Assembly: GCA_009786975.1 (NCBI GenBank)
Contig: WRGX01000219.1
Coordinates: 1 to 59,021 of the forward strand
DNA from: Defluviitaleaceae bacterium
GTDB taxonomy: Bacteria; Bacillota; Clostridia; Lachnospirales; WQUN01
DNA length: 59,021 bases
Direction: 5' to 3'
A program made the translations under genes and the position numbers. Below the pieces are notes generated by a model. That model saw nothing but the letters and a program-made list of their open reading frames with translations. It had not been told where the DNA came from and ran no database searches. Shown piece after piece: positions 28,245-59,021 of this stretch (position 1 is the first letter of the stretch; the number at the start of each line of letters is the position of its first letter).

Positions 28245-28245
28245 A

Positions 28246-29537: not shown

Positions 29538-29626
29538 ATGGACCGGTAAATGGCTCCCGGATTCGAGAGAACGTGCCGACGCCGACACATGTCCCCGGTG
29601 CCCAATGCGCGCTTGGCGCGCTTTTT
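29538..29626 (-). repeat. R90 repeat copy in the atp operon 3' UTR
   Basis: CTCCCGGATTCGAGAGAACG...ACACATGTCCCCGGTGCCCAAT, with GCGCGCTTGGCGCGC at 29607-29621. It lies 32 nt downstream of the atpC stop. Confidence 0.9.
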
Positions 29627-29657
29627 CAGTCAGTTTTCCTCCGCCGCTCATTCGTTC

Positions 29658-30092: not shown

Positions 30093-30172
30093 TTCTTTGC
30101 CCTCCGCTTCATCGGGGGATTCGCCCCTGAACCCTGGCACTGCGTGCGCCGGTCGGGCAGTTCCTTATCCGG

Positions 30173-31609
<1,437 letters not shown>

Positions 31610-31642
31610 TTATTTCCTGCTTGTCAAACCAAAGCGGTGTCT

Positions 31643-31737
31643 TTTTTTATGGGCCAGGAAACTGCTCCCGGCTTCGAGGGAATGTGCCGATTTCGACACA
31701 TGTCCCCGGTGTCCAATGCGCGCTTGGCGCGCTTTTT
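31643..31737 (-). repeat. R90 repeat copy inside the atp operon (atpG-atpD spacer)
   Basis: GGAAACTGCTCCCGGCTTCGAGGGAATG...ACACATGTCCCCGGTGTCCAAT, with GCGCGCTTGGCGCGC at 31718-31732. No P31 or other strong terminator lies next to it. Confidence 0.9.
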
Positions 31738-31856
31738 ATTTAAACTCGCCCCAATTCTCGCTCAAAAGTGCCGATTTGTTCTCAAAATCAATTTGATAGC
31801 GTATTGCGTGGTGATCTTTTATAAGCATTCCGTCGGTTAGGCGAATAGACGTCCTC

Positions 31857-37569: not shown

Positions 37570-37609
37570 AAAAAAGAGTCGGCGAGTGACACTCGCCGAC
37601 TCTTTTTTT
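37570..37609. terminator. P31 palindrome terminator separating the ABC gene from the atp operon
   Basis: A6-GAGTCGGCGAGTG-A-CACTCGCCGACTC-T7. Confidence 0.8.
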
Positions 37610-37875
37610 ACGGACGAGGAAACTGCCCCCGGCTTCGAGAGAACGCGTCGCCGCCGACACATGTCCCCGGTGCCCAATGCGCGCTTGGCGCGCTTTTTTA
37701 TGGGCCGGGAAACTGCCCCCGCCTTCGAGAGAACGCGTCGCCGCCTACACATGCCCCCGGTGCCCAATGCGCGCTTGGCGCGCTTTTTTATGGGCCGGGA
37801 AATTGCTTCCGGCTTCGAGGGAACGCGTCGCCGCCGACACATGCCCCCGGTGCCCATTGCGCGCTTGGCGCGCTT
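37610..37875 (-). repeat. R90 tandem array, 3 units, exact 90-bp period
   Basis: Head palindromes GCGCGCTTGGCGCGC start at 37679, 37769 and 37859. The array begins 8 nt after the ABC gene stop (37884) on the minus strand and ends at the P31 hairpin. Confidence 0.95.
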
Positions 37876-37883
37876 TTCATACG

Positions 37884-39656
37884 TTACGGGCGGGTTTCCA
37901 CCAACGAAAAATACTCCCCGCGAAGCTCCAAAAGTTCCTCGTGTGTCCCGCGCTCCGCGACTTTTCCGTGGTCAATCACCATAATCAAATCCGCGTGTTT
38001 AATCGTAGAAAGCCGATGCGCGATTATAAAGGAAGTGCGGCCTTGCAAAAGGCGGTCGAGGCCTTTTTGCAGGGCTTGCTCGGTGCGTGTGTCGATGTTT
38101 GCGGTGGCTTCGTCTAAGATTAAAATTCGAGGGTCGGCCAAAAGCGCGCGCGCGAAGGAAATCAGTTGCCGCTGACCGACGGAAAGCCGCGTACCGCGCT
38201 CGTTCACCTCGGTTTTGTAGCCCTTTTCGGTCTCCATTATGAATTCATGCGCGCAAACCGCTTTTGCCGCCGCGATTACCTCGTCGTCACTGGCGTCGAG
38301 GCGGCTGTAGCGGATGTTTTCCATGATTGTTCCCGAAAAAAGAAAGCTGTCCTGAAGCATTATGCCCATTTGTCGGCGCAACGAATACAGCGTCGCGTCG
38401 CCGATATCGAAGCCATCGATAAAAATTTGCCCTTTTTCAAGCTCGTAAAATCGCGAAAGCAGGTTCACAACCGTCGTTTTCCCCGCGCCCGTCGGCCCTA
38501 CAAGTGCAATCGTGCTTCCTGCTTCACAGGAAAAATTCACATTGTCCAAGACGGGCTGGTTTTTTTCGTATGAAAAACTTACATTTTTGAACTCGACACG
38601 CCCCTCGATTTCGGGCATATCGCACGCGCCGGGTTTATCCGCGACCAGAACCGGCTCGTCGAGGGTTTCAAAAATTAATTCGAGATAGCTCATGTTTGTG
38701 ACAATCGAATTGTAAAAAATCGCGATATTGTTAATCGGCGTCCAAAATCGATGAATGTACATGACAAACGCGACAAGAACGCCCACTGTAAGCGCGTTAT
38801 CAGCAATCATCGAAACCGCAACAACATATAAAAACGAAACCGCAAGCGTGCTGATATTTTCGATAGTGGGCCGCAACAAAAAGACCATCGCGATACCCTT
38901 CATCCAAGTTTTTTGTACGCTGTACGAAACATCGGCGAAAATCGCTTCATTTTCCGCTTCGCGCGAAAACGCCTGCGTAATTTTCACGCCCGCGATGCTT
39001 TCGTGAATATACGCGTTAAGATTCGACTGTTTCGCGCTGATTAACTGCCACGCCCGCCGATTTTTCGTGCGAATAATAAAAATCGCGCCAAAAAGAAAGG
39101 GCATCCCCGCCATTGCAACAAGCGTGAGCTGCGTGTCAATCGTCAGCATAATTACAACGATAATGCCAAGCGAAAGCATGTCTGTAATCACGTTTAAAAG
39201 CCCGTTCGACAGCATTTCGCTTAAGGAATTTATGTAATTAACAAGCCGCACAAGAATTTTCCCGTGGGGCCGCGAATCAAAAAAACTGAACGGCAAAAGC
39301 TGGATATGTTTAAACAAATCCAGCCGCAAGTCTCGAATTACGCCTTGCCCGACCTTAGCCATCGCCGCGATACGATATCGCATAAAAAATATGTTCAAAA
39401 AAATAGTAGCCAGCATGATTGCCGAAAGAATCAGCACCTGCGCCACATTTCCGGTCGGAATCGCCTCGTCCATAACAATCATCGTAAGGTACGGTGCCAA
39501 AAGCCCAAGCCCGCTCGAGGTAATCGTAAACGCAAAAGTAAGCCCGAAAACGCGCCGATAGGGACGAATATATTTCCCAAGCCGAAACAAATGCCCAAAC
39601 TTAAACACATTTTTTTGGTCGAGAACCTCGTCCTCGCGAAAAGTATTTCGCGCCAC
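37884..39656 (-). CDS. ABC exporter, fused permease/ATPase (type I exporter, probably homodimeric)
   Basis: Walker A GPTGAGKTT, signature LSVGQRQLISFARAL, Walker B ILILDEATANID. The start is reassigned to GTG 39656 (SD AAGGA 8 nt upstream), because the longer ORF to 39782 runs antisense through tRNA-Leu and has no in-frame ATG before the TM region. Confidence 0.85.
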   Translation of the reverse strand: MARNTFREDEVLDQKNVFKFGHLFRLGKYIRPYRRVFGLTFAFTITSSGLGLLAPYLTMIVMDEAIPTGNVAQVLILSAIMLATIFLNIFFMRYRIAAMAKVGQGVIRDLRLDLFKHIQLLPFSFFDSRPHGKILVRLVNYINSLSEMLSNGLLNVITDMLSLGIIVVIMLTIDTQLTLVAMAGMPFLFGAIFIIRTKNRRAWQLISAKQSNLNAYIHESIAGVKITQAFSREAENEAIFADVSYSVQKTWMKGIAMVFLLRPTIENISTLAVSFLYVVAVSMIADNALTVGVLVAFVMYIHRFWTPINNIAIFYNSIVTNMSYLELIFETLDEPVLVADKPGACDMPEIEGRVEFKNVSFSYEKNQPVLDNVNFSCEAGSTIALVGPTGAGKTTVVNLLSRFYELEKGQIFIDGFDIGDATLYSLRRQMGIMLQDSFLFSGTIMENIRYSRLDASDDEVIAAAKAVCAHEFIMETEKGYKTEVNERGTRLSVGQRQLISFARALLADPRILILDEATANIDTRTEQALQKGLDRLLQGRTSFIIAHRLSTIKHADLIMVIDHGKVAERGTHEELLELRGEYFSLVETRP

Positions 39657-39705
39657 AGTTTCACATCCTTGAATTTTTCTGTTATAATCCAATAATAGCA
39701 CAAAT

Positions 39706-39787
39706 GCGGATGTGGTGGAATTGGCAGACACGCGAGATTTAGGTTCTCGTGCCGTAAGGTGTGCAGGTTCAAGTCCTGTCATCCGCA
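39706..39787 (+). tRNA. tRNA-Leu (anticodon UAG)
   Basis: Cloverleaf read by eye. Acceptor GCGGATG/CATCCGC plus discriminator A. Anticodon stem CGAGA/TCTCG with loop TTTAGGT. Long variable arm. T-arm GCAGG-TTCAAGT-CCTGT. 82 nt, with no encoded CCA. An extended -10 TGTTATAAT lies at 39680-39688. Confidence 0.9.
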
Positions 39788-39799
39788 GAGCTAACGTAT

Positions 39800-40695: not shown

Positions 40696-42591
40696 TTATG
40701 CGCTCTCCTCAAACTGACTGCGATACAATTTTTCATAAACGCCGCCTGCGGCAAGAAGCCCGTCATGCGTACCTTGTTCGGCAATATCGCCGTCCCGCAT
40801 TACTAGGATTAAATCCGCGCTTCGAATCGTCGAAAGGCGATGCGCGATAATAAACGATGTGCGGCCTTGCATCAAATTGTCCATTGCGCGCTGGATTTGA
40901 ATCTCTGTGCGCGTGTCGACATTGCTTGTTGCTTCGTCGAGAATTAGAATGTCGGGGTTTGCCAAAATTGTTCGCGCGATGGTTAATAGCTGTTTTTGTC
41001 CGGCGGAAATATTGTCGGCTTCTTCATTGATTTGCATCCCGTATCCGTCGGGAAGCACGCGAATAAAGTGATGCGCCTGCGCCGCTCGTGCGGCGTTTTT
41101 TACGTCCTCGTCGCTTGCGTCGAGGCGTCCGTATCGGATATTTTCCGCAATTGTGCCGCTGAAAAGCCATGTATCTTGCAAAACCATGCCAAAATGCCGC
41201 CGCAATTCGTCGCGTTCGTATTCCGTAATATTTTTTCCGTCAACAAAAATCCCGCCCGACGCAACATCGTAAAACCGCATAAGCAGCTTGACAATCGTGG
41301 TTTTCCCCGCGCCGGTATGCCCGACAATCGCAATTTTCTGCCCCGGCTTAACCTCCGCCGTAAAATTTTTTATAACAGGCGTGTCCGGCTCATACCCAAA
41401 GCAGACGTTCTTAAACTCCACACGCCCAACGAAAGTTTTTTTGAGAAGGGTTTTTGGTTCCGGGGGCACGTGTAAATCCTTGCGCGTGCTCTCGAAGCCG
41501 GATGCTGTTTGCGTTGCTGCTTGTGTTGCTGATTGCGTTGAAAAAATTTCTCCCCCTAGGTCTTCTTCTTCCTCGCCCAAAAAATCAAAGACTCGCTCCG
41601 CCGCCGCCGCGGTTTGTTGGAAAACTGACGCGACTCCGGCGAGCTGGGCGATTGGGTGCCCGAGCTGGCGCGTGTACTGGATGAAGGCTTGAATTCCGCC
41701 GATTGTCATTGCGCCGTTAAGGGTCAGCGCGCCGCCGATTACGACGATTGCTACATACCCGATGTTACTAATAAATCCGACGATTGGCATCATCATGCCG
41801 GAGAAAAAATTTGCGCGCCAAGAGGCGTTATATAAGGCTTTGTTGTGCTCGTCAAAAGCCTCGACGGATTTTTTTTCGCCGTTGAACGCCTTGACGATGG
41901 CGTGCGCCGTGAACATTTCCTCGATGTGTCCGTTGAGTTTTCCCAGGTCTGCTTGTTGCGCCTTGAAATATTTTTGCGATTTTTGCACGACGAAGGCCGT
42001 GCAAGCCGCCGAAATCGGCAGGGTAATCAGGGCGACAAGCGTCAAAATCGGGCTGATTGTAAGCATCATTATAATCGTTCCGATGATGTGAACCGCGCTC
42101 ATTAACGCCTGGGAAATTCCCGAGCCAAGCGTGTTTGCCAAGGTATCGACGTCGTTTGATATGCGCGAAAGCACGTCTCCGTGCGGGTTTTTATCAAAAT
42201 ATTTCAGCGGCAAGCGATGAATTTTATCGCTTAATTCAACACGCAAGCGATACATAACACGCATGGCTACGCCCGCCATAATGTAGCCCTGTGCGTAGTT
42301 GAAAATAATATTCAGCGAGTGAAGCACGAGCATAATCAACAAAATTTGGCCGATTCGCGAAAAATCTATGCCGCCGACGCCCTCGCCCATGCGTATCAGC
42401 CCGCTGAAAATTTCGTCGGTCGCTTCGCCCAAAATTCGCGGCGCAAGCACCGCCATAATCGTCGAAACCACCATGAAAATCGTCGTAAGCGTGATGACAA
42501 ACATTTCGCCGCCGAGGTACGCCAAAAGTCGCCGAATCGCCCCGCGAAAATTTTTCGGCTTGTCTTCTTTGTGGGGCCCGTGTCGCCTCAT
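40696..42591 (-). CDS. ABC exporter, fused permease/ATPase (heterodimer partner 2)
   Basis: Walker A GHTGAGKTT, signature ISAGQKQLLTIARTI, Walker B ILILDEATSNVD. ATG 42591 overlaps the upstream gene stop as ATGA. The TMD-NBD linker is about 30 aa longer than in the paralog at 37884. Confidence 0.9.
   Translation of the reverse strand: MRRHGPHKEDKPKNFRGAIRRLLAYLGGEMFVITLTTIFMVVSTIMAVLAPRILGEATDEIFSGLIRMGEGVGGIDFSRIGQILLIMLVLHSLNIIFNYAQGYIMAGVAMRVMYRLRVELSDKIHRLPLKYFDKNPHGDVLSRISNDVDTLANTLGSGISQALMSAVHIIGTIIMMLTISPILTLVALITLPISAACTAFVVQKSQKYFKAQQADLGKLNGHIEEMFTAHAIVKAFNGEKKSVEAFDEHNKALYNASWRANFFSGMMMPIVGFISNIGYVAIVVIGGALTLNGAMTIGGIQAFIQYTRQLGHPIAQLAGVASVFQQTAAAAERVFDFLGEEEEDLGGEIFSTQSATQAATQTASGFESTRKDLHVPPEPKTLLKKTFVGRVEFKNVCFGYEPDTPVIKNFTAEVKPGQKIAIVGHTGAGKTTIVKLLMRFYDVASGGIFVDGKNITEYERDELRRHFGMVLQDTWLFSGTIAENIRYGRLDASDEDVKNAARAAQAHHFIRVLPDGYGMQINEEADNISAGQKQLLTIARTILANPDILILDEATSNVDTRTEIQIQRAMDNLMQGRTSFIIAHRLSTIRSADLILVMRDGDIAEQGTHDGLLAAGGVYEKLYRSQFEESA
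41430..41512 (+). repeat. degenerate R90 copy embedded in frame in the ABC linker
   Basis: 41457-41512 reads GGTTCCGGGGGCACGTGTAAATCCTTGCGCGTGCTCTCGAAGCCGGATGCTGTTTGCG. This aligns with the R90 core CACCGGGGGCATGTGTCGGCGGCGACGCATTCCCTCGAAGCCGGACGCAGTTTCCG. The head part (41430-41456) has decayed. Confidence 0.55.
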
Positions 42592-44468
42592 GAGACGGCA
42601 CCCTGACTTGATGCAATTTCGCGGTATTCCGCGCAATTTTTCAAAAGTTCTGCGTGAGTCCCGCGCCCGACGATTTTTCCTTCATCTAATACAAGGATTT
42701 GCTCGGCGTTTATAATCGTGCCGACGCGTTGCGCAATCACGATGATTGCGGCATTTGCGGCATGTTCGCGCAGGGCTTTTCGAAGTGCGGCATCGGTTTG
42801 GAAATCCAGCGCGGAAAACGCGTCGTCGAAGATTAAAATTTCCGGCTCTTTTGCAAGCGCGCGCGCAATCGAAAGCCGCTGGCGTTGTCCGCCGGAAATA
42901 TTTGTGCCGCCCTGCGAAATTTCCGCCGCGAATCCGCCCTCTTTTTCGGCAATAAAATCCGCCGCTTGGGCAACGCGCGCAATTTTTTCAAGGAAGGAAG
43001 GATTGTCTCCGGCTTTGTCTCCGGCTTCGAGAGAACGCGTGGCTTGCGACACATCTTCGCGGTGCCCACCGTGCGCTTGGCGCACTCCGTACTTTATGTT
43101 TGACTCAATCGTCCCCGAAAGAAGCTGCCCTTTTTGCGGCACGTAGCCGATTTTTTCGCGAAGTTCCGCCTGCCGCATCCGCCGAATATCCACCCCGTCA
43201 ACAAGAATCCGCCCGCCGCTTACATCGTAAAACCGAAGCAAAAGCTGCGCAATAGTGGACTTTCCGGCACCGGTTGCCCCAATAATCGCCGTAGTTTCGC
43301 CAGCTTTCGCATCAAACGAAATGCCCTCAACAGCCGCCGCCTCTGCGTTTGGATAGCTGAACGAAACCTGTTCAAAAACAATAGTCGGGGTCAAGGGGGC
43401 TTTGCTCCCTTGCGGGGGATTGGGGGCTGGTCGTCCGCCTAAAGGCGGACTGCTCGCCCATGCGACCGGGGCTGCGCCCCCAAGGTCTTCATCATCGACA
43501 ATACTAAACTCCGTATCAAGCACCTCGGAAATTCTCTTAGCCGAAACCTGCGCTCGCGGCACCATTACAAGCACCATCGAGAACATCATGAACGCGAAAA
43601 GGACTTGCATTGAGTATTGGAAAAAGGCCATCATGTCGCCGATTGGGAGGTCTTCGGAAAGGGTGCCGACGGAACGCGCGCCGAAAAAAATTATTGCGAC
43701 TTGCGTAAAACCCATGATGAACGTGATTGCGGGACCGATGAAAGCCATGGTTCTTCCGATGAAAAGACCGAGGTCGCGCAGGTCGGTGTTGGACTTGTCA
43801 AAACGGGATTTTTCGTGCGCCTGTGCGGCAAAAGCGCGGATGACGGGCAGGCCGTGCAGGATTTCGCGGGCGACGCGGTTGAGCCCGTCGGTCTTTTCTT
43901 GCACAAGAGCGAATTTGGGCATAACAATCGACACAAGAAGTATCACGATGCCGAATAAAATTATCACGGCAAGCCCCAAAATCCAGCTAAGCCCGGGGGC
44001 GCGGGTGAGTGCCATAAAAATTCCGCCGACAGCCAAAATAGGCGCGTAAAGAAGCATGCGCGCCGAAATGTTTGCGACATTTTGGACCTGTGTAACGTCG
44101 TTTGTGCAGCGTGTGATAAGCGACGCCGACGAAAATTTATCGAATTCCGTCTGCGAAAAGTTTTCGACTTTTATGAACAAATCGCGCCGCAAATCACGCG
44201 CCGCGCCCGCCGCAACTTTGGGCGAAATGTATGAAACAATAATCGAAAATGTACCCGCCAAAAGCGCGAAAAAAAGCATTGCGGCACCCGTTTGCAAGAT
44301 AAATTCCATGCGCGACTCGCCCGTTTGGTAGGCATAAACAATGCCGTCGTCAACGATTGCGGACATCAAGGTCGGCAAATAAAGCTCCGCAAGCGACTGC
44401 ACAAAAAGCAGCACAAGTATAAGAATTATTCCGCCCCAAAAGGGCTTTAAATATTTCGCCAGTGACAT
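42588..44468 (-). CDS. ABC exporter, fused permease/ATPase (heterodimer partner 1) carrying in-frame repeat insertions
   Basis: Walker A GATGAGKST, signature ISGGQRQRLSIARAL, Walker B ILIFDDAFSALD. It has an extra ~25 aa between NIKYG and the AADFI helix, and an extra ~24 aa in the TMD-NBD linker, relative to the two paralogs in this window. Confidence 0.9.
   Translation of the reverse strand: MSLAKYLKPFWGGIILILVLLFVQSLAELYLPTLMSAIVDDGIVYAYQTGESRMEFILQTGAAMLFFALLAGTFSIIVSYISPKVAAGAARDLRRDLFIKVENFSQTEFDKFSSASLITRCTNDVTQVQNVANISARMLLYAPILAVGGIFMALTRAPGLSWILGLAVIILFGIVILLVSIVMPKFALVQEKTDGLNRVAREILHGLPVIRAFAAQAHEKSRFDKSNTDLRDLGLFIGRTMAFIGPAITFIMGFTQVAIIFFGARSVGTLSEDLPIGDMMAFFQYSMQVLFAFMMFSMVLVMVPRAQVSAKRISEVLDTEFSIVDDEDLGGAAPVAWASSPPLGGRPAPNPPQGSKAPLTPTIVFEQVSFSYPNAEAAAVEGISFDAKAGETTAIIGATGAGKSTIAQLLLRFYDVSGGRILVDGVDIRRMRQAELREKIGYVPQKGQLLSGTIESNIKYGVRQAHGGHREDVSQATRSLEAGDKAGDNPSFLEKIARVAQAADFIAEKEGGFAAEISQGGTNISGGQRQRLSIARALAKEPEILIFDDAFSALDFQTDAALRKALREHAANAAIIVIAQRVGTIINAEQILVLDEGKIVGRGTHAELLKNCAEYREIASSQGAVS
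43003..43086 (-). repeat. R90 copy inserted in frame in the nucleotide-binding domain of the ABC gene
   Basis: TCTCCGGCTTCGAGAGAACGCGTGGCTTGCGACACATCTTCGCGGTGCCCACC, plus the head GTGCGCTTGGCGCAC (43071-43085). A 12-bp internal duplication GTCTCCGGCTTT/GTCTCCGGCTTC is present. The segment translates as VRQAHGGHREDVSQATRSLEAGDKAG. Confidence 0.85.
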
Positions 44469-44560: not shown

Positions 44561-44600
44561 AAAAAAAAATGAGTCGGCGAGTGTCACTCGCCGACTCATT
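44561..44600. repeat. P31 palindrome copy in a divergent promoter region
   Basis: A9-ATGAGTCGGCGAGTG-T-CACTCGCCGACTCAT (44569-44599). It lies between the ABC start (44468, minus) and the htrA start (44691, plus), so no gene ends here. Confidence 0.75.
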
Positions 44601-44690
44601 TGCACTCATCTGCAAAAAACATGAAAAATCTCGGTAAAAGCTCGACAAAAGCACGAAACAAGTGGTATTATTAAAGGTGAGGTGATTCAA

Positions 44691-46130
44691 GTGCATGAAA
44701 ACGAACGCGATGAATTCGATTTTTTCGGACTTTCCGAGATTGACAAAATACAGGAAGCAATTGAAAAAGACTTGGCAAACGAGGGTCAAACGACCGCGAC
44801 GCCGCAGGATGACGCCGCGTTTGCGAAGTTTTTTCTTGTTCCGGAGGAAAAAAAACATGGTGATGAATGGGCAGATATTTACGACGACTTAGCGGATGCG
44901 TCGGGTGAACCGCCCGCTTCATATCGCGTAATTGCTAAGCCCGCACCCGAAAAATCATGGTTCGGAGTCGCGGTCGCCTTGATGTTTGCCTGCACGCTCG
45001 GGATGGGGATTTTGGGCTTCGGCATCGGAGCGGGGTTGTCGTTTTTCGGTGGGGCAGAGCCTCCCCTCCCCGCGGAGGTCGTCGCGCCCGGCGCGGAATT
45101 TACGGCTACTTCGTATGTCTTTGAAATGGAGCGGGAAGTCGCGTCGCTTTCGGATATGATTGAGCTGATTGCACCGTCAGTTGTGGGTATTACGACACAT
45201 CGCGCACATCACGACAGACCTCACATGCAACTTTTCGACCCGATTGCAAGCTACGGTTCGGGAATAATTTTTGCATACACTCACGACAGAATTTTTATCG
45301 CAACAAATCTTTACGTCGTTCGCCCGGGGTATCGCTGGGATGTCAGCATCGACGGCAGTGCGCCGATTGAGGCGAGACCCGTCGGAACGAATGATGATTA
45401 CGATTTGGCGGTTGCATATATTTTAAACGCGGATTTAATGGCGGCGGGAATCGGCGAGGTTACGTTTGCGTCGTTCGGCGACTCCGACGAGATGCGAATC
45501 GGCGACGTTGTGCTTGCGATTGGGAACGCGATGGGGGAAGGGACTGCGGTTACTCAAGGGATTTTAAGCGCGGCGGAGCGTCCGCTTTATTTGCCCGGCA
45601 GAGAGTATCCGATTCCGCTTTTGCAAACCGACGCCGCGATAAATTACGGCAACAGCGGCGGCCCGCTTTTAAACACGCGCGGCGAAATTATCGGTATAAA
45701 CATGAATCGCGCGACCCGCCTTATGACGGACCCGTCGCTTGCGGAGGGCATGGGCTACAGTATTTCCGCGAACGTTGCCGCGCCGATTTTGCTTGAAATT
45801 GCGGCAAATTATCGTATGCCGGCGATTGGAATAAGCGGGCGTTCCCTTGCGGAAGATTTGGAAAATCGCGCGGAACTTTGGGGCATACCCGCGCTTGGCG
45901 TAATAATTCTCGAAGTGCATGAAGGCCGCGCCGCGTACAATGCAGACCTTCGCGAAGGCGACATTATAACCGCCTTCGACGGCCAGCCCGTCTTCGATAT
46001 GCCACAGCTCCAAGCCGCCATTCGCGCAAAAGAAATCGGCGACATCGTCGAAATTCGTATACTCCGCGGCGGCTCCGTCGCACACACCGTCGAAGTCGAA
46101 CTCGCCAAGATGATTCGCGACTTCTTTTAG
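44691..46130 (+). CDS. htrA: HtrA/DegP-family serine protease with TM anchor and C-terminal PDZ domain
   Basis: Catalytic-triad contexts IATNLYVV (His region), DYDLAV and GNSGGPLLNTRGEIIGI. PDZ: GVIILEVHEGRAAYNADLREGDIITAFDGQPV. GTG 44691 is preferred (SD AAGGTGAGG 9 nt upstream); the ORF opens at 44682. Confidence 0.85.
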   Translation: MHENERDEFDFFGLSEIDKIQEAIEKDLANEGQTTATPQDDAAFAKFFLVPEEKKHGDEWADIYDDLADASGEPPASYRVIAKPAPEKSWFGVAVALMFACTLGMGILGFGIGAGLSFFGGAEPPLPAEVVAPGAEFTATSYVFEMEREVASLSDMIELIAPSVVGITTHRAHHDRPHMQLFDPIASYGSGIIFAYTHDRIFIATNLYVVRPGYRWDVSIDGSAPIEARPVGTNDDYDLAVAYILNADLMAAGIGEVTFASFGDSDEMRIGDVVLAIGNAMGEGTAVTQGILSAAERPLYLPGREYPIPLLQTDAAINYGNSGGPLLNTRGEIIGINMNRATRLMTDPSLAEGMGYSISANVAAPILLEIAANYRMPAIGISGRSLAEDLENRAELWGIPALGVIILEVHEGRAAYNADLREGDIITAFDGQPVFDMPQLQAAIRAKEIGDIVEIRILRGGSVAHTVEVELAKMIRDFF

Positions 46131-46182
46131 CACCGAGTACACATGTCGGTTTTTCCGCATTCTCTCGAAGCCGGATTTATGG
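46131..46182 (+). repeat. headless partial R90 copy directly after the htrA stop
   Basis: CACCGAGTACACATGTCGGTTTTTCCGCATTCTCTCGAAGCCGGATTTATGG aligns with the R90 core and tail. No head palindrome is present. Confidence 0.6.
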
Positions 46183-46217
46183 TATGATGTCGAAAAATGC
46201 GTTAAGGATGTGAAAGA

Positions 46218-48894: not shown

Positions 48895-48936
48895 CAAAAA
48901 TGAGTCGGCGAGTGTCACTCGCCGACTCATTTTTTC
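48895..48936. terminator. P31 palindrome terminator after the ABC ATPase pair
   Basis: A5-ATGAGTCGGCGAGTG-T-CACTCGCCGACTCAT-T5, with arms at 48900-48930. Confidence 0.8.
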
Positions 48937-49048: not shown

Positions 49049-50137
49049 ATGGAACAGATTAAGCTGGGCGTTGTCGGCCTCGGGCTTGCGTGGGAGCGGC
49101 TTCACGCGCCCGCGCTTGCAAAACTGCGGGACAGATTTGAAATTGCTGCGGTGTGTGACAGGGATTTGGCAAAGGCACAAAACGTTGTGCAATTCATGGG
49201 GCATTCGCCCGAAAACGCTTTTGATGATTTGCAAAAAATGCTTGAGCGGGACGACATCGAGGCGATTTTGTCGCTTGTTCCCATCAGCGAAAACTTTGAA
49301 ACCGCCGCAACCGTCATGCGAAGCGGCAAGCATCTTTTGGCGGAAAAACCCTTCGCGGCCTCGCCCGACGCGGCACGGAGGCTTATTCAAATGTGCGATT
49401 TGTCAAGCTCGACGGTTATGGTTGCGGAAAATGTGCGTTACGAGGAACAAAACGTGCTGATAAAAGAGCTCCTCACAAGCGGCGAAATCGGCGAGCCGAT
49501 TTTTTTCATCGATACGCACATCATCGACTACGCGAGGGAGTCGGAGCGCGGCGGTTTCGGTCAAACAAATTGGCGGCAACATCCGCGATATGAAGGCGGC
49601 GTGATTCTTGATTCCGGCGTGCATCATATGGCGAGGTTGCGGTATCTTTTCGGCGATATCGACAATGTGTCCGCGCACGGGCATCCGCCCATGCACGATT
49701 TCGCGCCGTATTCCTGCATAAACGCGCTGTTAAAATTTGAAAATATCACGGGACATTACACATTTTTCACGGCAGGAAGGGAAACACAAGCACCGCTCGT
49801 TGGGTTGCGAATTTACGGCACAAAAGGCGAAATTTTCCTCGAGGATTCAAACTGTGGGTTCGTAAACATTTCATATACCGACGAACGCCCCTCCAACGCC
49901 GTTAACTACATGCCCGGCCTCGGCTACCAGCGCGAGCTTGAAAACTTCCACGCCGCAATTCGCATGGGCGCGAAAATCGAATCCGGCCCCGAAAAGGCCG
50001 TCGGTGACATCGAAGCTGTTTTCGCTCTGTTGGAATCCGCCCGTGCAAACGAATCCTCCCCCTCGGATGCGTCCGAAAGACTGACGTCGGCCTACATTTT
50101 TCCAAAAGTCACAATGTATCCGGGCGCAAGAGTTTAG
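49049..50137 (+). CDS. Gfo/Idh/MocA family oxidoreductase
   Basis: Rossmann N-terminus IKLGVVGLGLAWERLHAPAL and the EKP motif LLAEKPFA. SD AAAGGAG. Confidence 0.85.
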   Translation: MEQIKLGVVGLGLAWERLHAPALAKLRDRFEIAAVCDRDLAKAQNVVQFMGHSPENAFDDLQKMLERDDIEAILSLVPISENFETAATVMRSGKHLLAEKPFAASPDAARRLIQMCDLSSSTVMVAENVRYEEQNVLIKELLTSGEIGEPIFFIDTHIIDYARESERGGFGQTNWRQHPRYEGGVILDSGVHHMARLRYLFGDIDNVSAHGHPPMHDFAPYSCINALLKFENITGHYTFFTAGRETQAPLVGLRIYGTKGEIFLEDSNCGFVNISYTDERPSNAVNYMPGLGYQRELENFHAAIRMGAKIESGPEKAVGDIEAVFALLESARANESSPSDASERLTSAYIFPKVTMYPGARV

Positions 50138-50491
50138 GCGCGCCAAGCGCGCGGTGGGCACCGGGGACATGTGTCGGCGGCGACGCATTCCCTCGAAGCC
50201 GGGAACAGTTTCTTGGTCCACAAAAAAGCGCGCCAAGCGCGCGGTGGGCACCGGGGACACGTGTCGGCGGCGACGCATTCCCTCGAAGCCGGACGCAGTT
50301 TCCGAGCCCATAAAAAAGCGCGCCAAGCGCGCGGTGGGCACCGGGGGCATGTGTCGGCGGCGACGCATTCCCTCGAAGCCGGACGCAGTTTCCGAGCCCA
50401 TAAAAAAGCGCGCCAAGCGCGCGGTGGGCACCGGGGACACGTGTTGGCGGCGACGCATTCCCTCGAAGCCGGATGCAGTTTACCGGTCCAC
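50138..50491 (+). repeat. R90 tandem array, 4 units, exact 90-bp period
   Basis: Head palindromes GCGCGCCAAGCGCGC start at 50138, 50228, 50318 and 50408. Units 2 and 3 differ at 2 of 90 positions. The array starts on the nucleotide after the TAG stop of the upstream gene. Confidence 0.97.
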
Positions 50492-50533
50492 AAAAAAAAC
50501 AACCCGGATGTCAGGTTTCCGGGTTGTTTTTTT
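50492..50533. terminator. bidirectional intrinsic terminator between the oxidoreductase gene/R90 array and glgD
   Basis: A8-AACAACCCGGA (50498-50508) pairs with TCCGGGTTGTT (50518-50528), then T7. Confidence 0.8.
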
Positions 50534-50578
50534 GGAGATGATGAGGGCGAATTTCAATTTTTGAGAGTGGAAAAAGTA

Positions 50579-53598: not shown

Positions 53599-53714
53599 GC
53601 GTGCCTCCTGATATTTTTTAATCGGTTACAGGGCGTAACCGGTTGATTTTTTTAGAGGGTAACATGATTTTTTCGGGTTGTAAAGCGTACGGTATAAAAC
53701 AAAGTTTTTCCCGT

Positions 53715-53780
53715 GTCGGAATGCCCGGCGACAACGCTTTCCGACACATGCCCCCGCTACCCACTACGCGCTTAGCGCGC
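53715..53780 (-). repeat. degenerate R90 copy abutting the SDR gene stop
   Basis: CCGGCGACAACGCTTTCCGACACATGCCCCCGCTACCCACTACGCGCTTAGCGCGC. The ACACATGCCCCCG core is kept, and the head is reduced to CGCGC-TTA-GCGCG. Confidence 0.55.
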
Positions 53781-54499
53781 TACCACGGCCACTCATAACC
53801 GTCGTAATCCACCATTACGAGCCGATTTTCATCCCCAAGCGGCGTTTCAAAATATTTTGCCGCGATTTCGCCGATAACATCGGGGTCATACTTTCCGTCT
53901 TTGGCTAATTCGCCGTTTTGTTCGCGAAATTTCATCCACCCCGGGTGAAACAGGCGAAACGTGTAGCCCTGCGGGAACAATTCGTTATGCAAAAGACGCA
54001 CGCCCATATTCATTGCAGCCTTGCTCATGGGATACGGAAAGTCGTCGATAAAGCGGGTTTTCATCAAATTTATGCACGAAACTTCGCTGGATACATAGCA
54101 CAGCCGCCGCTCGCCGCCCCTCATAAGCGGCAAAAACGCCCGCGTAAGCCTAAGCGGCCCAAGCGCGTTCACATTAAACGAATTCCACGGCGCGTCCAAA
54201 TCCATCGGCGCGTCATACAATTTGCACTCCACCTTGTTCATCAACGCCGCGTTTGAAATAAGCATGTCAACCACGTCGGTGTTTTTCGCGACTTCATCGG
54301 CGGCGGCGAAGATACTTTCCTCGCGGCCTAAATCAACGCGAACAATGTGAAGGTTCGAGTTTTTTTCGCGCAGTTCCTCCAAAAAAAAGTAATCCTCCAT
54401 GAACTTCACCGCAAAAACCTGCCAATCGCGGCTTAAAAATTCCTTGCAAAGCGAAAGCCCCAAACCCCTGTCCGCACCTGTTATGAATACGCTTTTCAT
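53780..54499 (-). CDS. short-chain dehydrogenase/reductase (SDR) family oxidoreductase
   Basis: MKSVFITGADRGLGLSL (TGxxxGxG), with the YxxxK context PYPMSKAAMN. SD GAAGGGG upstream of ATG 54499. Confidence 0.85.
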   Translation of the reverse strand: MKSVFITGADRGLGLSLCKEFLSRDWQVFAVKFMEDYFFLEELREKNSNLHIVRVDLGREESIFAAADEVAKNTDVVDMLISNAALMNKVECKLYDAPMDLDAPWNSFNVNALGPLRLTRAFLPLMRGGERRLCYVSSEVSCINLMKTRFIDDFPYPMSKAAMNMGVRLLHNELFPQGYTFRLFHPGWMKFREQNGELAKDGKYDPDVIGEIAAKYFETPLGDENRLVMVDYDGYEWPW

Positions 54500-54657
54500 G
54501 GCAAAACCCCTTCTTATACCAATATCTCGTTCATTCAATCCGAATCCACCATTCGCACAAATTATATCATTGTTTTTTCATCTGTGTGAAAATCGATGAC
54601 ACTAACCTTGGTCTGTGCTTATTGTCTGTGGTAATATCTTCGCACGAGGTGAAAAAC

Positions 54658-55869
54658 ATGCATGTAAGCGGCATAATCGCCGAATTCAACCCGCTTCATC
54701 GCGGGCATATCGCCCATATAAATGAAACGCGACAAAAATTCGGCGGAAAAATCGTTGTTGCGATGAGCGGGAATTTCGTCCAGCGCGGCGAACCCGCGAT
54801 TTTTGACAAACGAAAACGCACCAAAACGGCTCTTTTGGCGGGCGCGGACATTGTGCTTGAAATTCCTGTGCCGTATGTGATTGCGGGCGCGGATTATTTT
54901 GCGCGAGGAAGTGTCGGGCTTTTGGCGGCGACGGGCGTGGTTTCGACGCTTAGTTTTGGCAGTGAGTGCGGGGATATTGAGGCGATTCGCCAAACGGCGG
55001 ACGTGCTTGCGAACGCGCGCCAAATGCGCGTGCCGATGGCGACACATGCTCCCGAAAACGATTTCGGTTTGTTTGAAGAAACATTGCGCGCGCATCTCGA
55101 CGCGGGCATGTCCTTCGCGGCGGCGCGCGGCGCGGCACTTTCGGCGTGCTTGCCCGATGCGCCGGAAGGCTTGTTCACCAAGCCGAATAACTGCCTCGCA
55201 ATCGAATATTGCAAAGCACTTCTCCTTCTCGGAAGCCCGATGGAAGTTTTCACAACACACCGTGCGTCCGGCGGCCCGTCCGCGACAAAAATTCGCGCGC
55301 GCCAAGCACGCAATGAGCACCGAAGACGCATATCGCACATCGACGACTTCTCAAAAATCTTCCGCCATCTCCTGCACACGCGTGATTTCGACCTCGGCGA
55401 AGGTTTACAAAACCGTTTCCGCAAATTTTCCGCCGAATTCACCCAAATTTCCGAAATAATCGACGCGGTAAAAACCAAACGCTACACGCGCACGCGCCTG
55501 TCCCGCGCGGTTTTGGGCGTAATTTTGGGCATCTCTTCGGCAGATATGGATTTTTTTGATTCGGCGAAAAACTGCACCCGTCTTCGGGGGAACCCGTCGC
55601 ATCCAGCACATGACTTCGGTGCCCAATACATACGCGTTTTGGGCTTTCGCAAAGAAAGCGCGGATTTGCTTGGCGCGATAACAAAAAAGGCCGCGCTGCC
55701 CGTCATAACGCACGGCGCGGCCATGGATGAAATTTTACGCGGCGACAAAGGCGAAGCCGCCGCCGCCATGCTTGCGAAGGACTTCGAAGCAACCGATATT
55801 TACCGAATCGCAACAAACACACCCTGCGCCTTCCGAGGCGAACGCGGCGAAGGGATTATTGTAGTGTAG
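54658..55869 (+). CDS. tmcAL: tRNA(Met) cytidine acetate ligase (TmcAL/YlbM, UPF0348 nucleotidyltransferase)
   Basis: GIIAEFNPLHRGHIAHINETR (HxGH motif), AMSGNFVQRGEPAIFDKRKR and ADIVLEIP. SD GAGGTG upstream of ATG 54658. Confidence 0.8.
   Translation: MHVSGIIAEFNPLHRGHIAHINETRQKFGGKIVVAMSGNFVQRGEPAIFDKRKRTKTALLAGADIVLEIPVPYVIAGADYFARGSVGLLAATGVVSTLSFGSECGDIEAIRQTADVLANARQMRVPMATHAPENDFGLFEETLRAHLDAGMSFAAARGAALSACLPDAPEGLFTKPNNCLAIEYCKALLLLGSPMEVFTTHRASGGPSATKIRARQARNEHRRRISHIDDFSKIFRHLLHTRDFDLGEGLQNRFRKFSAEFTQISEIIDAVKTKRYTRTRLSRAVLGVILGISSADMDFFDSAKNCTRLRGNPSHPAHDFGAQYIRVLGFRKESADLLGAITKKAALPVITHGAAMDEILRGDKGEAAAAMLAKDFEATDIYRIATNTPCAFRGERGEGIIVV
55566..55650 (-). repeat. degenerate R90 copy embedded in frame in tmcAL
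   Basis: GAAAAACTGCACCCGTCTTCGGGGGAACCCGTCGCATCCAGCACATGACTTCGGTGCCCAAT aligns with GGAAACTGCCCCCGGCTTCGAGAGAACGCGTCGCCGCCGACACATGTCCCCGGTGCCCAAT at roughly 70% identity by eye. The head palindrome is lost. Confidence 0.5.
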
Positions 55870-55873: not shown

Positions 55874-56641
55874 CTAAGACGAAACGTTTGCCGCAACATT
55901 CGGCAACTCACTATTGTCCCCGACGGCGCGGGAAACGTTCGTTTCGCTCGTTGCATCAGCAGTTTCCACCGCGCCCTTGGCGCGACGCAGAATTTTCATG
56001 GTTTCCTCGTCAAGCGGCTCGTAACGCACGCCGTCGGGCAAGCCTTTATTTGCGTTCTGAAACCGCGCGGCGGCGGATTCGGGCGAAGACGCTTGGGCTT
56101 GCATTTGCGGCGGCGCAGACATCGTCGGCGATTTCAACATACGGCCAAGCGGCGGAGCCATCGACGGTCTTTGGGCATGATTCTGCGGCGGAATCATAGG
56201 AGTCCGTTGCGCCTGCGAATAATCATATCCGGCTTCGTGACGAGCTTGCGGCCTCGGCTTCATGTCCCCGGTTAGAAGCGTCCGTTGCGCCTGCGAATAA
56301 TCATATCCGGCTTCGTGACGAGCTTGTGGCCTCGGCGACCGACCCGCCGTAAGCGGCTCAACCGGAACAGCTCGCCGTTCCCCGCGGGCAAGCCCAAGCG
56401 GATAATTTCTGAGCCAAACGTCCGAACCTCCCGAAACATGCGCGGAAGTCCCCGCGCTCTGCGTATTTTTTGCCTCGCGCCCGCGGCTGAAATATGCCGT
56501 CGGTGCCGGCGGAAAATTTAAAGGCATAACATGCACCCCATCAAGTCGAGAAAAACGCGGACTTCGTACTACTTCCCTCTCGAAAGGTTGAAATAGTACC
56601 ACACGTTCTTTTTGCGACTGTTTTTTTCGAAGAAAAAACAC
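55874..56641 (-). CDS. hypothetical P/Q/R-rich protein with an internal 26-aa duplication
   Basis: 255-aa ORF convergent with tmcAL across a 4-bp gap. The start is uncertain: GTG 56641 abuts its SD, and ATG 56527 is also possible. No recognisable domain. Confidence 0.4.
   Translation of the reverse strand: MFFLRKKQSQKERVVLFQPFEREVVRSPRFSRLDGVHVMPLNFPPAPTAYFSRGREAKNTQSAGTSAHVSGGSDVWLRNYPLGLARGERRAVPVEPLTAGRSPRPQARHEAGYDYSQAQRTLLTGDMKPRPQARHEAGYDYSQAQRTPMIPPQNHAQRPSMAPPLGRMLKSPTMSAPPQMQAQASSPESAAARFQNANKGLPDGVRYEPLDEETMKILRRAKGAVETADATSETNVSRAVGDNSELPNVAANVSS
56203..56336. repeat. 78-bp-period tandem duplication (about 1.7 units) inside the P/Q/R-rich ORF
   Basis: TCCGTTGCGCCTGCGAATAATCATATCCGGCTTCGTGACGAGCTTG(C/T)GGCCTCGGC occurs at 56203-56258 and 56281-56336, with 1 mismatch in 56 nt. 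It encodes RPQARHEAGYDYSQAQRT twice. Confidence 0.9.
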
Positions 56642-56896: not shown

Positions 56897-58762
56897 ATGA
56901 CAAATTTGAACACCGGTTTGATTTACACCGACGTAAGCGGATGCATCGATTGCAATAAATGCATCCACGAATGCCCCGTTTTAAAGGCAAATGTTGCAGT
57001 ACCCGATGGTTCCGGCTCGTACAATATATGCGTGGACCAAAACGAGTGCATTTTATGCGGAACATGCAACGACACCTGCACGCACAATGTCCGACATTTC
57101 CGCGACGATTGTGACAGCTTCTTCGACGACCTAAAACGCGGGAAAGCAATTTCGGTTATTGTAGCTCCCGCGTTTTATATTAACTATCCAAGCGAGTACA
57201 AGCGCGTTTTCGGATATTTGAAAAGCATGGGCGTGAAAAATTTTTATTCCGTAAGCTACGGCGCGGATATCACGGCATGGGCGTACTTAAATCACATCAC
57301 CCAAACGGGCAAAATGGGCAATATCGCCCAGCCCTGCCCCTGTATAACAAATTACATCGAAAAACATCAGCCCGAGCTTATCCCAAGCCTAATCCCCGTA
57401 CACTCGCCCATGATGTGTATGGCAATATATTTGAAGCGATACAAAAATGTAAGCGACAGCCTGATGTTCCTGAGTCCGTGCATCGGCAAAAAAGTCGAAA
57501 TCGACTCGAAGCGCGGGTTGGGGATGATTGACTACAACGTTACGTTTGCCACCCTGATGGAGCGCGTCAAAAACAGCGGAGTAAACCTAAACGCACAGCC
57601 CGAGGTCGACGATGTCATCGACTACGGCATGGGCGCGCTTTTTTCAAAGCCGGGCGGCCTGCGCGAAAACGTGGAATTTTACGTGGGGACCGACGCCCTT
57701 GTCGTGCAAGTCGAGGGCGAACACAAGGCGTATTCCTATCTGAAAAATTTTGCGAAACGCGCGGGGTCAAGCTCGCGGTCGATGCCGATGCTTATCGACA
57801 TATTGAACTGCGAAGCGGGTTGCAACCAAGGCACAGCAACCGAGTTTCGCCACTCCACCGACGATTCCATCGCCTTCGAAGCACACCAAATGCGCGCAAA
57901 AAAAGTTAATGGCATGACCGACGCAGAGGGCAATATTTTAACCGACCCCGCCGACCGTCTCGCCCGATTAAACGAAATGTTCGCAGATTTGCGCCTCGAC
58001 GACTTCAAGTGCAACTATGACACAAGCGAGGCACTTCGCACACGCTCAATCGGCGACATGGAAATAAATAAAATTTTTGCGGATATGCTCAAAACCACGC
58101 ACGAGGACAAAACGATTGATTGCAGCGCGTGCGGCTATAAAACCTGCCTTGATTTGGCGCAAGCAATCGCGTACGGCATCAGTTATCCCGAAAAATGCGT
58201 GTACTATGTAAAAGCGAACCTGGACGTACAAATCGAGCATCAAAAAGCCATCGTTGACGGTTTCGCAAACATAAACAATTTGCTCGCCGAGCTTACAAAC
58301 GACAATATAAAAACATCTGAAAGCACAACTTCAATAAACAATCACATCAACGAAGCCGTCGAGCAAGGCGGCGTTATGCGAAAAACCCTCGAGGACATAC
58401 AGGCGGAGTTCGCAAATTTAAACAAAACCTACATGGAAATCGCGACAATCGCGCGGCAAACCAGCTTACTTTCCATAAACGCGGCAATCGAGGCCGCCCG
58501 CGCCGGAAACATGGGTAAAGGCTTTGGCGTCGTTGCGGAAGAAGTCGGCGCGCTTGCAAAAAAAACCATGAGTACCGTAAATGTCAACTCCGAAAACTCC
58601 GAAAACATCTCCAAAGTTTTGAACAAACTAATCGCCGACACAAACTCCCTCATCTCAAAAATCGACAACGTAAACAGCTCCACCGATGAAATCACCGAAA
58701 GCGTAAGCGACATCACCGCAAAAACAGAAAACATTCTCGCGCTTATGGATGAATTGAAATAA
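56897..58762 (+). CDS. soluble [FeFe]-hydrogenase-like (2x[4Fe-4S] plus H-cluster-type domain) protein fused to a methyl-accepting chemotaxis signalling domain
   Basis: Ferredoxin motifs [12 protein letters not shown] and [11 protein letters not shown]. Ordered Cys motifs [14 protein letters not shown] and [14 protein letters not shown] hairpin [44 protein letters not shown]. No TM segment. SD GGGAGGGG. Confidence 0.85.
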
Positions 58763-58770
58763 CTTTTTAC

Positions 58771-58857
58771 AAAAAGCGCGCCAAGCGTGCATTGGGTACC
58801 GGGGACATGTGTCGGCGGCGACGCATTCCCTCGAAGCCGGGAGCAGTTACCCGGCGT
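58771..58857 (+). repeat. R90 repeat copy in the 3' UTR of the hydrogenase-like MCP gene
   Basis: AAAAAGCGCGCCAAGCGTGC (one G-U compatible change), then TACCGGGGACATGTGTCGGCGGCGACGCATTCCCTCGAAGCCGGGAGCAGTTACC. It starts 9 nt after the stop. Confidence 0.9.
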
Positions 58858-58859
58858 AC

Positions 58860-58900
58860 AAAAAAACAATCGTCCGGTATCACCGGACGATTGTTTTTTT
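58860..58900. terminator. bidirectional intrinsic terminator
   Basis: A7-AACAATCGTCCGGT (58865-58878), loop ATC, ACCGGACGATTGTT (58882-58895), then T-run to 58900. Confidence 0.8.
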
Positions 58901-59021
58901 GTGGGATTCCAGAAGAAACACCGCCGTGTAGCAAAATGGATATGGGCGTGCAGTATTCTTTCAATTTATTCCCGATGAGAATCCCGATGCCACCAAGCAT
59001 ATGTCCGCGAATATGCTCTCC

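Follow-up and report, generated by a model that had tools for sequence, protein, structure and literature searches.

The contig WRGX01000219.1 of a Defluviitaleaceae bacterium carries, directly after an oxidoreductase gene, an array of four head-to-tail repeat units (50138-50497), and this locus raises the question of what the repeat, named R90, is and how it came to lie both behind stop codons and inside genes. The whole contig of 59,021 nucleotides (nt), called the window below, was analysed. An earlier note on this DNA had described R90 as a family of at least 13 copies with a REP/MITE-like distribution, an RPE-like (Rickettsia palindromic element) tolerance inside genes and a period that is a multiple of the codon. 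The family was found to be real, as blastn, nhmmer and a covariance model (R1), which was built from R90 units and used for census and alignment, agreed on 13 full-length units in the 59 kb, alongside 8-9 copies that are partial or decayed. A degenerate pattern of the R90 core matched the window exactly nine times and had 0 matches in 100 shuffles. No described family was matched in Rfam; a search of the window gave one tRNA match alone at the gathering threshold and nothing meaningful on the array at permissive thresholds. R90 is apparently a family of 82-nt, three-hairpin repeats not described before, and it is probably a small, non-autonomous, structured mobile element that has no terminal inverted repeats and duplicates 8 bp of an A-rich target.

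The insertion footprint and the 90-nt period

The region 13291-13449 forms a perfect long palindrome in which the 3' arm (13416-13449) is unbroken and the 5' arm is in two pieces. In a repeat search both pieces, 13291-13308 and 13391-13414, were found to pair with one and the same 8-nt stretch of the 3' arm, and the following features were delimited.

13301-13308, + strand: left 8-nt target-site duplication, ACGAAAAA
13309-13390, + strand: 82-nt R90 element (GCGCGCC...TAGCCC), from the repeat search
13391-13398, + strand: right 8-nt target-site duplication, ACGAAAAA, the "tail" of the 90-nt unit
13399-13449: rest of the interrupted palindrome, with the T27 hairpin 13402-13428 and the extended arm

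Because the 3' arm is intact, the sequence before the insertion is on record: the A-rich part of the 5' arm received the 82-nt element, and ACGAAAAA was duplicated in the process. The 90-nt period is thus made of 82 nt of element and 8 nt of duplicated target, and not of 30 codons. The tail of R90 varies between copies and often equals the 5' flank because it is the duplicated target; this was seen for TACAAAAA at 58770 and ATAAAAA at 31643, and matching flanks of 7-9 nt also occur in the related loci L013, L003 and L019. The duplicated target is A-rich with a consensus of about NNNAAAAA, and the consensus 5' flank of R90 is AAAAAA.

The window has two arrays with a period of 90 nt.

50138-50497, + strand: R90 array of four head-to-tail units (Tandem Repeats Finder, period 90, 4.0 copies, 92% matches; covariance model, 76-105 bits per unit)
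37604-37879, - strand: R90 array of three units (Tandem Repeats Finder at 37604-37877, period 90, 3.0 copies; covariance model), 6 nt downstream of the ABC transporter gene 37884-39782(-)

The array 50138-50497 begins at the TAG stop of the GFO/IDH/MocA oxidoreductase gene 49049-50137, and each of its units consists of the 82-nt element and an 8-nt A-rich junction. The exact 90-bp period given earlier for the window was confirmed, and its reading as a multiple of the codon was rejected: besides 90, the arrays of the family have periods of 47, 55, 62, 63, 89, 92, 93 and 99, so that intergenic periods are often not multiples of 3, and periods of 60 and 66 are found solely in arrays within open reading frames (ORFs). 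The varied intergenic periods and the sum of 82 and 8 make the 30-codon multiple a coincidence. All arrays of the family are direct, head to tail, with units that abut without spacers. Arrays have variants peculiar to them: all four units at 50138-50497 share GGT at columns 22-24, a variant present in no other copy, which argues that arrays grow locally.

In exact-pattern scans, among the matches listed, R90 was present solely in the termite-gut Defluviitaleaceae metagenome-assembled genome (MAG) WQVC01 and in three termite-gut JGI metagenomes (Ga0123355, Ga0209755 and JGI24703J35330). No R90 match was obtained by blastn against plasmid and phage collections, and a single IMG/VR match (L043) was rejected as a phage occurrence, being the same genomic region as L036. 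Searched against 5.8 billion proteins, a profile of the R90 frame-0 peptide retrieved 47. Another Defluviitaleaceae MAG (locus tags FWF77_) accounts for at least 43 of these, each annotated as a "hypothetical protein" of 45-102 residues, and no orthologous R90 loci were found among the 47 R90-derived peptides of that MAG. At least 43 of the FWF77_ proteins (P0122-P0167) are translated R90 units with the adjoining hairpin, that is, spurious gene calls of the annotation pipeline PGAP.

The subfamilies of R90 are genome-specific; the window consensus is 91.5%, 80% and 72% identical to the consensuses of the three metagenomes, and for orthologous genes the DNA identity between R90 genomes is about 80-83%. 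The window and the related locus L004 share the ATP synthase operon at 82% DNA identity, and its atpG-atpD spacer has R90 in the window and none in L004. Downstream of atpC, a forward copy precedes the terminator in the window, and a reverse copy comes after it in L004; in L037 R90 directly follows two genes whose window orthologs have none. No intergenic R90 was found at an orthologous position in the compared relatives. The REP/MITE-like distribution proposed earlier is borne out in that R90 is multicopy, lies mostly at gene 3' ends, occupies non-orthologous sites in relatives and has one reconstructed insertion with an 8-bp target duplication. R90 is marked as a mobile or formerly mobile non-autonomous element by its footprint, its turnover, its subfamilies peculiar to each genome and its insertions in ORFs. 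As a separate observation, L004 has a GNAT-like ORF between atpG and atpD (3960-4425), and the window counterpart, 31589-31856, holds an R90 unit.

Anatomy and predicted fold

In an alignment of 40 full-length units from four sources, the nearly invariant boxes ACC-G-RRR-ACA, TTCYCTCGAAGCCGG and CAGTTTCC alternate with variable stems. Three hairpins were modelled: the GC-rich head H1 (columns 7-12 with 16-21, 96% of cells paired), H2 (columns 33-45 with 50-61, 86%) and H3 (columns 67-72 with 81-86, 73%). In this model 85% of cells pair overall and the covariation score is 0.251, against 0.175 in shuffles; when the partners were slid by 1-3 columns, just 32-58% of cells paired. In a larger alignment of 83 sequences, which was fitted to the covariance model R1 and so favours the modelled structure, 16 of the 24 pairs had changes on both sides compared with 11.5 ± 1.5 in shuffles (0/500). 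The single long hairpin given by the minimum free energy fold of one unit paired in 70.7% of cells with little covariation, and the three hairpins were preferred. RNAalifold on a gapless alignment recovered the head hairpin alone, because the subfamilies differ in register. By these findings the three hairpins are real, and they may act in RNA or in single-stranded DNA.

The two strands are not equal. In 39 of 50 units the fold of the forward strand is more stable, by about 3 kcal/mol, than that of the reverse strand, and G-U pairs number 232 against 182 A-C pairs, a weak asymmetry. On the reverse strand the head GCGCGCTTGGCGCGC followed by TTTTTT is terminator-like, as had been proposed from the sequence; it passes a terminator pattern scan and was flagged at three of the four units of the 50138 array. 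In the forward orientation the A-run stands 5' of the head stem, so that the terminator pattern is found on the reverse strand only. Terminal inverted repeats are absent, and an outer stem of columns 23-28 with 85-90 pairs in 49% of cells. The conservation of the internal unpaired boxes is left unexplained by every model compared.

Copies at gene ends and inside genes

The copies between genes and the hairpins next to them, apart from the two arrays, are as follows.

247-342, - strand: full R90 unit (covariance model, 78.8 bits), containing the final 14 codons and the stop of the dockerin-protein ORF 297-1157(-); a terminator hairpin at about 212-246 follows
13303-13398, + strand: full R90 unit from the census, with the 82-nt element proper (13309-13390) in the 5' arm of the palindrome
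28240-28387, + strand: variant R90 copy of about two partial units with a 47-nt period (Tandem Repeats Finder, nhmmer, covariance model), beginning at the TAG stop of ORF 27666-28244
29446-29479, + strand: R90 fragment, model positions 50-83 (nhmmer E 6e-4; covariance model weak, E 0.08)
29504-29530: T27 hairpin after the unit 29532-29627
29532-29627, - strand: full R90 unit, 31 nt downstream of atpC (29658-30140, -) (covariance model)
31643-31738, - strand: full R90 unit between atpG and atpD in the ATP synthase operon (covariance model), co-oriented with both genes and with no hairpin after it
37576-37602: T27 palindromic terminator-like hairpin GAGTCGGCGAGTGACACTCGCCGACTC, abutting the tail of the array 37604-37879
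46106-46198, + strand: R90 core copy without head or tail (nhmmer E 6e-6; pattern match), beginning at the TAG stop of the HtrA-like gene 44682-46130
50498-50541: hairpin immediately behind the array tail, terminator-like in both directions (A-run, CAACCCGG...CCGGGTTG, T-run), free energy -17.4 kcal/mol over 40 nt
53705-53786, - strand: 3'-truncated R90 copy (nhmmer, covariance model), its head fused to the TAG stop of the SDR gene 53780-54538(-)
58770-58865, + strand: full R90 unit (covariance model), 8 nt past the stop of gene 56897-58762, with TACAAAAA on either flank and a terminator hairpin (58866-58901) next

All 14 firm copies listed earlier were recovered, and that list was incomplete, as it lacked 55297-55352(+) and the weak match 54991-55083(+). 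A possible copy at 56229-56272 was not upheld (nhmmer E 0.46) and was found to be part of a separate 57-nt duplication, 56202-56336. This direct repeat (56202-56258 and 56280-56336, 98% identical, 78 nt apart) lies in ORF 55874-56641(-), which has no Pfam domain, and contains CCGGCTTCG, yet it is not R90.

Nine of the ten intergenic loci of the window are downstream of a same-strand gene, and all five copies in tandem-gene spacers are co-oriented with the genes. The proximity to stop codons that had been reported was reproduced, with starts from -4 to +8 nt of 28244, 46130, 50137, 58762 and 37884, and also of 53780. For all loci, gene maps were made with a codon-usage-scored gene caller written for this analysis, by which the upstream gene is on the same strand for 39 copies and on the opposite strand for 20. 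About 24 of the 39 co-oriented copies begin between -6 and +11 nt from the stop codon, and in several a TAG stop is fused to the R90 head.

A strong hairpin, defined as one of at most -10 kcal/mol in the 40 nt after the tail with a gap of 0-3 nt, was found in 43 of the 53 intergenic copies with an intact tail (81%); 17 of these hairpins are the head of the next R90 and the remainder are terminator-like with a T-run. Upstream of the head a strong hairpin was present in 17% of copies only. The hairpin 29504-29530 is faced from both sides by R90 copies, 29446-29479(+) and 29532-29627(-). It belongs to a 27-nt palindrome, GAGTCGGCGAGTGWCACTCGCCGACTC, that has six copies in the window, three adjoining R90 and three solitary.

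13402-13428, 20737-20763, 29504-29530, 37576-37602, 44571-44597 and 48902-48928: copies of the 27-nt palindrome

This palindrome is a second repeat family, perfect over 27 nt (GAGTCGGCGAG-TGWCA-CTCGCCGACTC), preceded by an A-run and followed by a T-run, and is terminator-like; its copy at 20737 overlaps the stop codon of ORF 19494-20750. Other repeated terminator hairpins, GGGGCTGTTGCAAATTTTGCAACAGCCCC and ACCTATCGGTA...TACCGATAGGT, are peculiar to related genomes.

R90 was also found inside genes of the window, as listed here.

41442-41549, + strand: decayed R90 copy in the ABC exporter 40696-42636(-) (nhmmer E 6.5e-6; covariance model E 1.6e-6)
42983-43091, - strand: R90 copy in the ABC exporter 42588-44468(-) (covariance model, 55 bits)
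54991-55083, + strand: weaker third R90 match in the TmcAL-like gene 54586-55869(+) (covariance model E 7e-3)
55297-55352, + strand: probable R90 copy (..ARQARNEHRRRISH..) in the TmcAL-like gene (nhmmer E 2e-4; covariance model E 3e-4)
55553-55641, - strand: R90 copy in the TmcAL-like gene (nhmmer E 5e-13; covariance model, 41.9 bits)

The copy 42983-43091 is in the sense orientation and is translated in frame as VRQAHGGHREDVSQATRSLEAGDK within the ATPase domain of its exporter, at a place where the window protein has 29 residues against 6 in a solved PDB homolog. Of 16 close homologs, 12 have nothing at this site. In the WQVC01 ortholog the site is taken up by a longer R90-like insert, and the L044 ortholog (83% protein identity) has none, its empty site reading ...TAT GGC AAC GAA AAC GCG GAG CTT GAA AAG... 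In an AlphaFold model of this exporter, which is moderate as a whole (mean pLDDT 67.8), residues 466-488 have a pLDDT below 50 and the flanks are confident. The same ORF has a second in-frame extra segment, LGGAAPVAWASSPPLGGRPAPNPPQGSKAPL (43374-43493, -), which is absent from the L044 ortholog and most homologs, has a pLDDT below 50 and gives short blastn matches in L034 and L018 that suggest a third small repeat family entering ORFs as well.

The antisense copy 41442-41549 is translated in frame (..ASGFESTRKDLHVPPEP..) in the linker between the transmembrane and nucleotide-binding domains of the other exporter, a linker of 43 residues against 10 in PDB 8wcw_B. The antisense copy 55553-55641 is likewise in frame and makes an insert of 14 residues in the PDB alignment with TmcAL of Thermotoga maritima, and one or two sense copies lie besides it in the same gene. 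In related loci R90 splits the HflX G domain, a radical-SAM/DUF512 protein, TruA, a class-V aminotransferase and a GHMP kinase, it lies N-terminal to the matched domains in a GT4 glycosyltransferase and an AI-2E transporter, and in L003 the RNase H-like domain of UvrC is about 114 residues longer through 3 x 60 nt and one more unit of R90. In these conserved ORFs R90 is in frame with the domains intact on both sides, as in insertions of the RPE type. The RPE-like tolerance in genes proposed earlier is therefore supported by in-frame segments in three window genes, one empty-site ortholog and further cases in relatives. Arrays of shortened R90 units were also observed in coding sequences at L003 588-776 (UvrC, 3 x 60 nt) and L034 7417-7611 (class-V aminotransferase, 3 x 66 nt), where they add repeated peptides of 20-22 residues to conserved enzymes.

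Sense copies within ORFs outnumber antisense ones, 17 to 5. Frame 0 (ARQAR..HRGHMS..THSLEAG) is used by 13 of 20 sense in-ORF copies and frame 2 by six. In-ORF copies score 38-60 bits compared with 75-113 bits for intergenic ones, which indicates that the coding copies are older or more changed. The antisense in-ORF copies have lost the head, which in this orientation would be a terminator within the gene.

The window is a whole metagenome contig from a termite-gut Firmicute, and its genes include an F-type ATP synthase operon, genes for ribosomal proteins and others for dockerin and SLH proteins. Three further observations were made on its gene content. The tRNA-Leu gene 39705-39788(+) overlaps the 5' end of the ABC transporter ORF 37884-39782(-), whose true start codon therefore lies further downstream. 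The gene 56897-58762(+) joins an Fe-only hydrogenase large-subunit domain and Fe-S motifs to a methyl-accepting chemotaxis signalling domain, resembling a sensory hydrogenase fusion. The gene 1172-13102(-) encodes a protein of 3976 residues with CotH, lamin-tail, InlB B-repeat and dockerin domains and has internal DNA repeats, for example 2059-2317 and 3028-3286.

Origin of R90 and its relation to known repeats

The position of the copies suggests how such an element may spread. R90 would land preferentially in an A-tract immediately 5' of a GC-rich hairpin, and since such hairpins are mostly intrinsic terminators, copies would gather between stop codon and terminator on the strand of the upstream gene. 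Its own 5' head, an A-run and GCGCGC-CAA-GCGCGC, mimics such a target, so re-insertion at the head, or unequal exchange, could yield head-to-tail arrays with a period of 82 + 8 = 90. A target of this kind would jointly account for the 3'-untranslated-region (3'-UTR) position, the orientation and the self-targeted arrays. Co-transcribed within the 3' UTR, R90 would be able to fold into its three hairpins, while on the opposite strand the head and T6 would give an intrinsic-terminator-like signal that is tolerated at gene ends. Insertions in coding regions would survive when the frame is kept and be translated as hydrophilic inserts of 20-30 residues in permissive loops, comparable to those of Rickettsia palindromic elements. 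The mobilising enzyme would act in trans from outside the window. The placement and sequence of R90, together with the known behaviour of REP and SPRITE repeats, suggest that it may be co-transcribed, stabilise mRNA 3' ends and terminate antisense transcription. It is also conceivable, though we think it unlikely, that the mechanism is one undescribed for small bacterial repeats: structure-guided integration of an element without inverted repeats into an A-tract 5' of a GC-rich hairpin, be this a terminator or the element's own head, with an 8-bp duplication. The internal boxes (ACC..., UUCYCUCGAAGCCGG, CAGUUU) could then be recognised by a dedicated partner, a protein or an RNA, whose action would extend to R90-bearing 3' UTRs.

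Several observations weigh against R90 as a mobile element. The unambiguous target-site duplication occurs at one site alone (13291-13449), and no further palindrome recording a pre-insertion sequence was found beyond it. Flank matches of at least 7 nt were seen in 30% of copies compared with 17% in mismatched controls, a modest excess, and no duplication was seen at the outer array flanks 50132 and 37879. The best-conserved part is internal (TTCYCTCGAAGCCGG) and not terminal, which is atypical for a transposon recognised by its ends. By the gene caller made here, copies in tandem-gene spacers of all loci were co-oriented in 20 cases against 12, a moderate bias. Copies within one genome are 77-85% identical to one another, which makes a recent burst unlikely and long-term retention by selection possible. 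In agreement with the earlier note, a Pfam search of the 39 window ORFs gave no transposase, RAYT or Y1_Tnp domain; none was recognised in related loci either, and a parent insertion sequence with matching ends was not found in the window or the fetched related loci.

Alternatively, R90 could above all be a cis-acting 3'-UTR RNA module that is itself under selection and whose spread is secondary, be it a stabiliser against 3' exonucleases, a processing or protein-binding site, or the precursor of a multicopy 3'-UTR-derived small RNA. Copies placed after the stop codon and before the terminator, in the orientation of the upstream gene, hairpins backed by covariation, the better-folded forward strand, unpaired boxes (ACC, UCGAAG, CAGUUU) kept nearly invariant although subfamily stems differ, and a consensus with 91.5% identity between two lineages, against about 80% for their genes, would all be expected of it. 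However, individual intergenic copies are not kept at orthologous positions, many copies lie in ORFs in either orientation, the host genes have no common function and the excess of G-U over A-C pairs is weak. This explanation was judged improbable as a replacement for mobility; it is compatible with the mobile-element reading and not exclusive of it. A Y1 (HUH) transposase, of the IS200/IS605 or RAYT type, that would move R90 in the form of single-stranded DNA, in the manner of REP/REPIN or PATE elements, seems a good deal less probable. R90 is built of hairpins, is strand-specific, has no terminal inverted repeats and bears hairpins near both ends, H1 at the 5' end and H3 about 10 nt from the 3' end. 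Yet these end hairpins are unrelated in sequence, there is neither a GTAG motif nor inverted REPIN pairs, the orientation follows local gene direction within 59 kb and not a replication direction, the window ORFs have no Y1_Tnp match, and an 8-bp target duplication is present, whereas to our knowledge Y1 transposition (IS608/ISDra2, RAYTs) makes none.

The A-rich target duplication together with the A-rich 3' end of the element, the lack of inverted terminal repeats and the co-orientation with transcription would also fit an RNA intermediate, in which a 3'-UTR transcript is reverse transcribed and integrated at A-rich sites like a bacterial SINE. We regard this as very unlikely: intergenic copies show no excess of 5' truncation (9 truncated at 5' against 15 at 3'), the A-run is inseparable from the duplicated target, no reverse transcriptase is encoded in the window, and we know of no bacterial precedent. 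Effectively refuted is the view of R90 as a protein-coding peptide module (PARCEL-like) with dead intergenic remnants, or as an assembly artefact. The open state of five of the six frames, noted earlier and confirmed here, the prevalence of frame 0 among sense in-ORF copies and the small "hypothetical proteins" that PGAP annotates on R90 in the related MAG (at least 43) speak for a coding role, but at least five open frames also occur in 7% of composition-matched shuffles. Moreover, the copies in the best state of preservation lie between genes and start at a stop codon or behind one, decay marks the copies inside ORFs, several frames are used on either strand, and intergenic array periods often do not divide by 3. 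An artefact is contradicted in that three independent metagenome assemblies, and two MAGs besides, contain the family in varying sequence. The mobile element outlined above thus remains the probable identity of R90.

Compared with known systems, R90 appears to work like an RPE in genes and like a REP, SPRITE or MITE (a miniature transposable element with inverted repeats) between genes, while belonging to none of them; the likeness to REP and MITE claimed earlier held for distribution and not for literal membership of REP or the classical MITEs. REPs stabilise upstream mRNA; each is a single palindrome of about 35 nt (20-40 nt) with a 5' GTAG, pairs in inverted orientation, is tied to RAYT genes and makes no target duplication. 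R90 resembles REP, BIME and REPIN in having GC-rich hairpins after stop codons within transcription units, including operons, and in being clustered, but it is 82 nt long with three different hairpins, has no GTAG, forms direct arrays, duplicates its target and enters ORFs. RPEs are short structured repeats, intergenic and often in frame in unrelated conserved genes, for which the cognate transposase is not known (PMC10969869). R90 shares with them the occurrence between genes and in frame in unrelated conserved genes, with a conserved peptide tolerated in surface loops. Its hosts, however, are free-living or gut Firmicutes and not obligate intracellular alpha-proteobacteria, it is 82 nt against about 100-150 nt and has three hairpins against one long palindrome, and it shows head-to-tail arrays, a position mainly 5' of terminator hairpins and the 8-bp target duplication; host phylum and consensus set it apart from RPE-1 to RPE-10, so that the likeness is one of behaviour only.

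The SPRITE, BOX and RUP repeats of Streptococcus pneumoniae are interspersed repeats of less than 200 bp with predicted folding in the transcript and enrichment near gene 3' ends, and SPRITE is terminator-like with A/T-run ends and a partner insertion sequence that is not known (PMC3049150). R90 is likewise a short Firmicute interspersed repeat that is predicted to fold and lies near gene 3' ends. SPRITE differs in being AT-rich with one 18-bp duplex and a U-tract in its own orientation, whereas in R90 the terminator-like part belongs to the opposite strand, and a separate terminator follows the unit. Inverted terminal repeats, absent from R90, are found in BOX and RUP. Classical MITEs (Correia/NEMIS, ERIC, Nezha, QMITE) make occasional in-frame intragenic insertions and are co-transcribed with neighbours (PMC10969869). 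R90 is similarly small, non-coding and multicopy, with one clean 8-bp target-site duplication and several matching flanks of 7-9 nt, but it has no terminal inverted repeats. Two other candidates were rejected, a CRISPR array as the units abut with no unique spacers, and an integron attC site as the three hairpins carry no core-site motifs (RYYYAAC/GTTRRRY) and the neighbours are housekeeping genes.

R90 is already the source of dozens of spurious "hypothetical proteins" in a public MAG, and it lengthens annotated proteins in these lineages. Its notable aspects are the in-frame colonisation of genes outside Rickettsia and the hairpin-adjacent targeting without inverted terminal repeats. If this reading is true, Rickettsia would not be alone in having housekeeping proteins heavily colonised in frame by a small structured repeat, and free-living gut Firmicutes would be a further case. 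With its 82 nt, clear footprint and hairpin-adjacent target, R90 would be a tractable family for reaching the enzyme that moves repeats without inverted ends. As the same three-hairpin RNA and antisense terminator would lie at the 3' ends of many unrelated genes, R90 may shape mRNA ends genome-wide.

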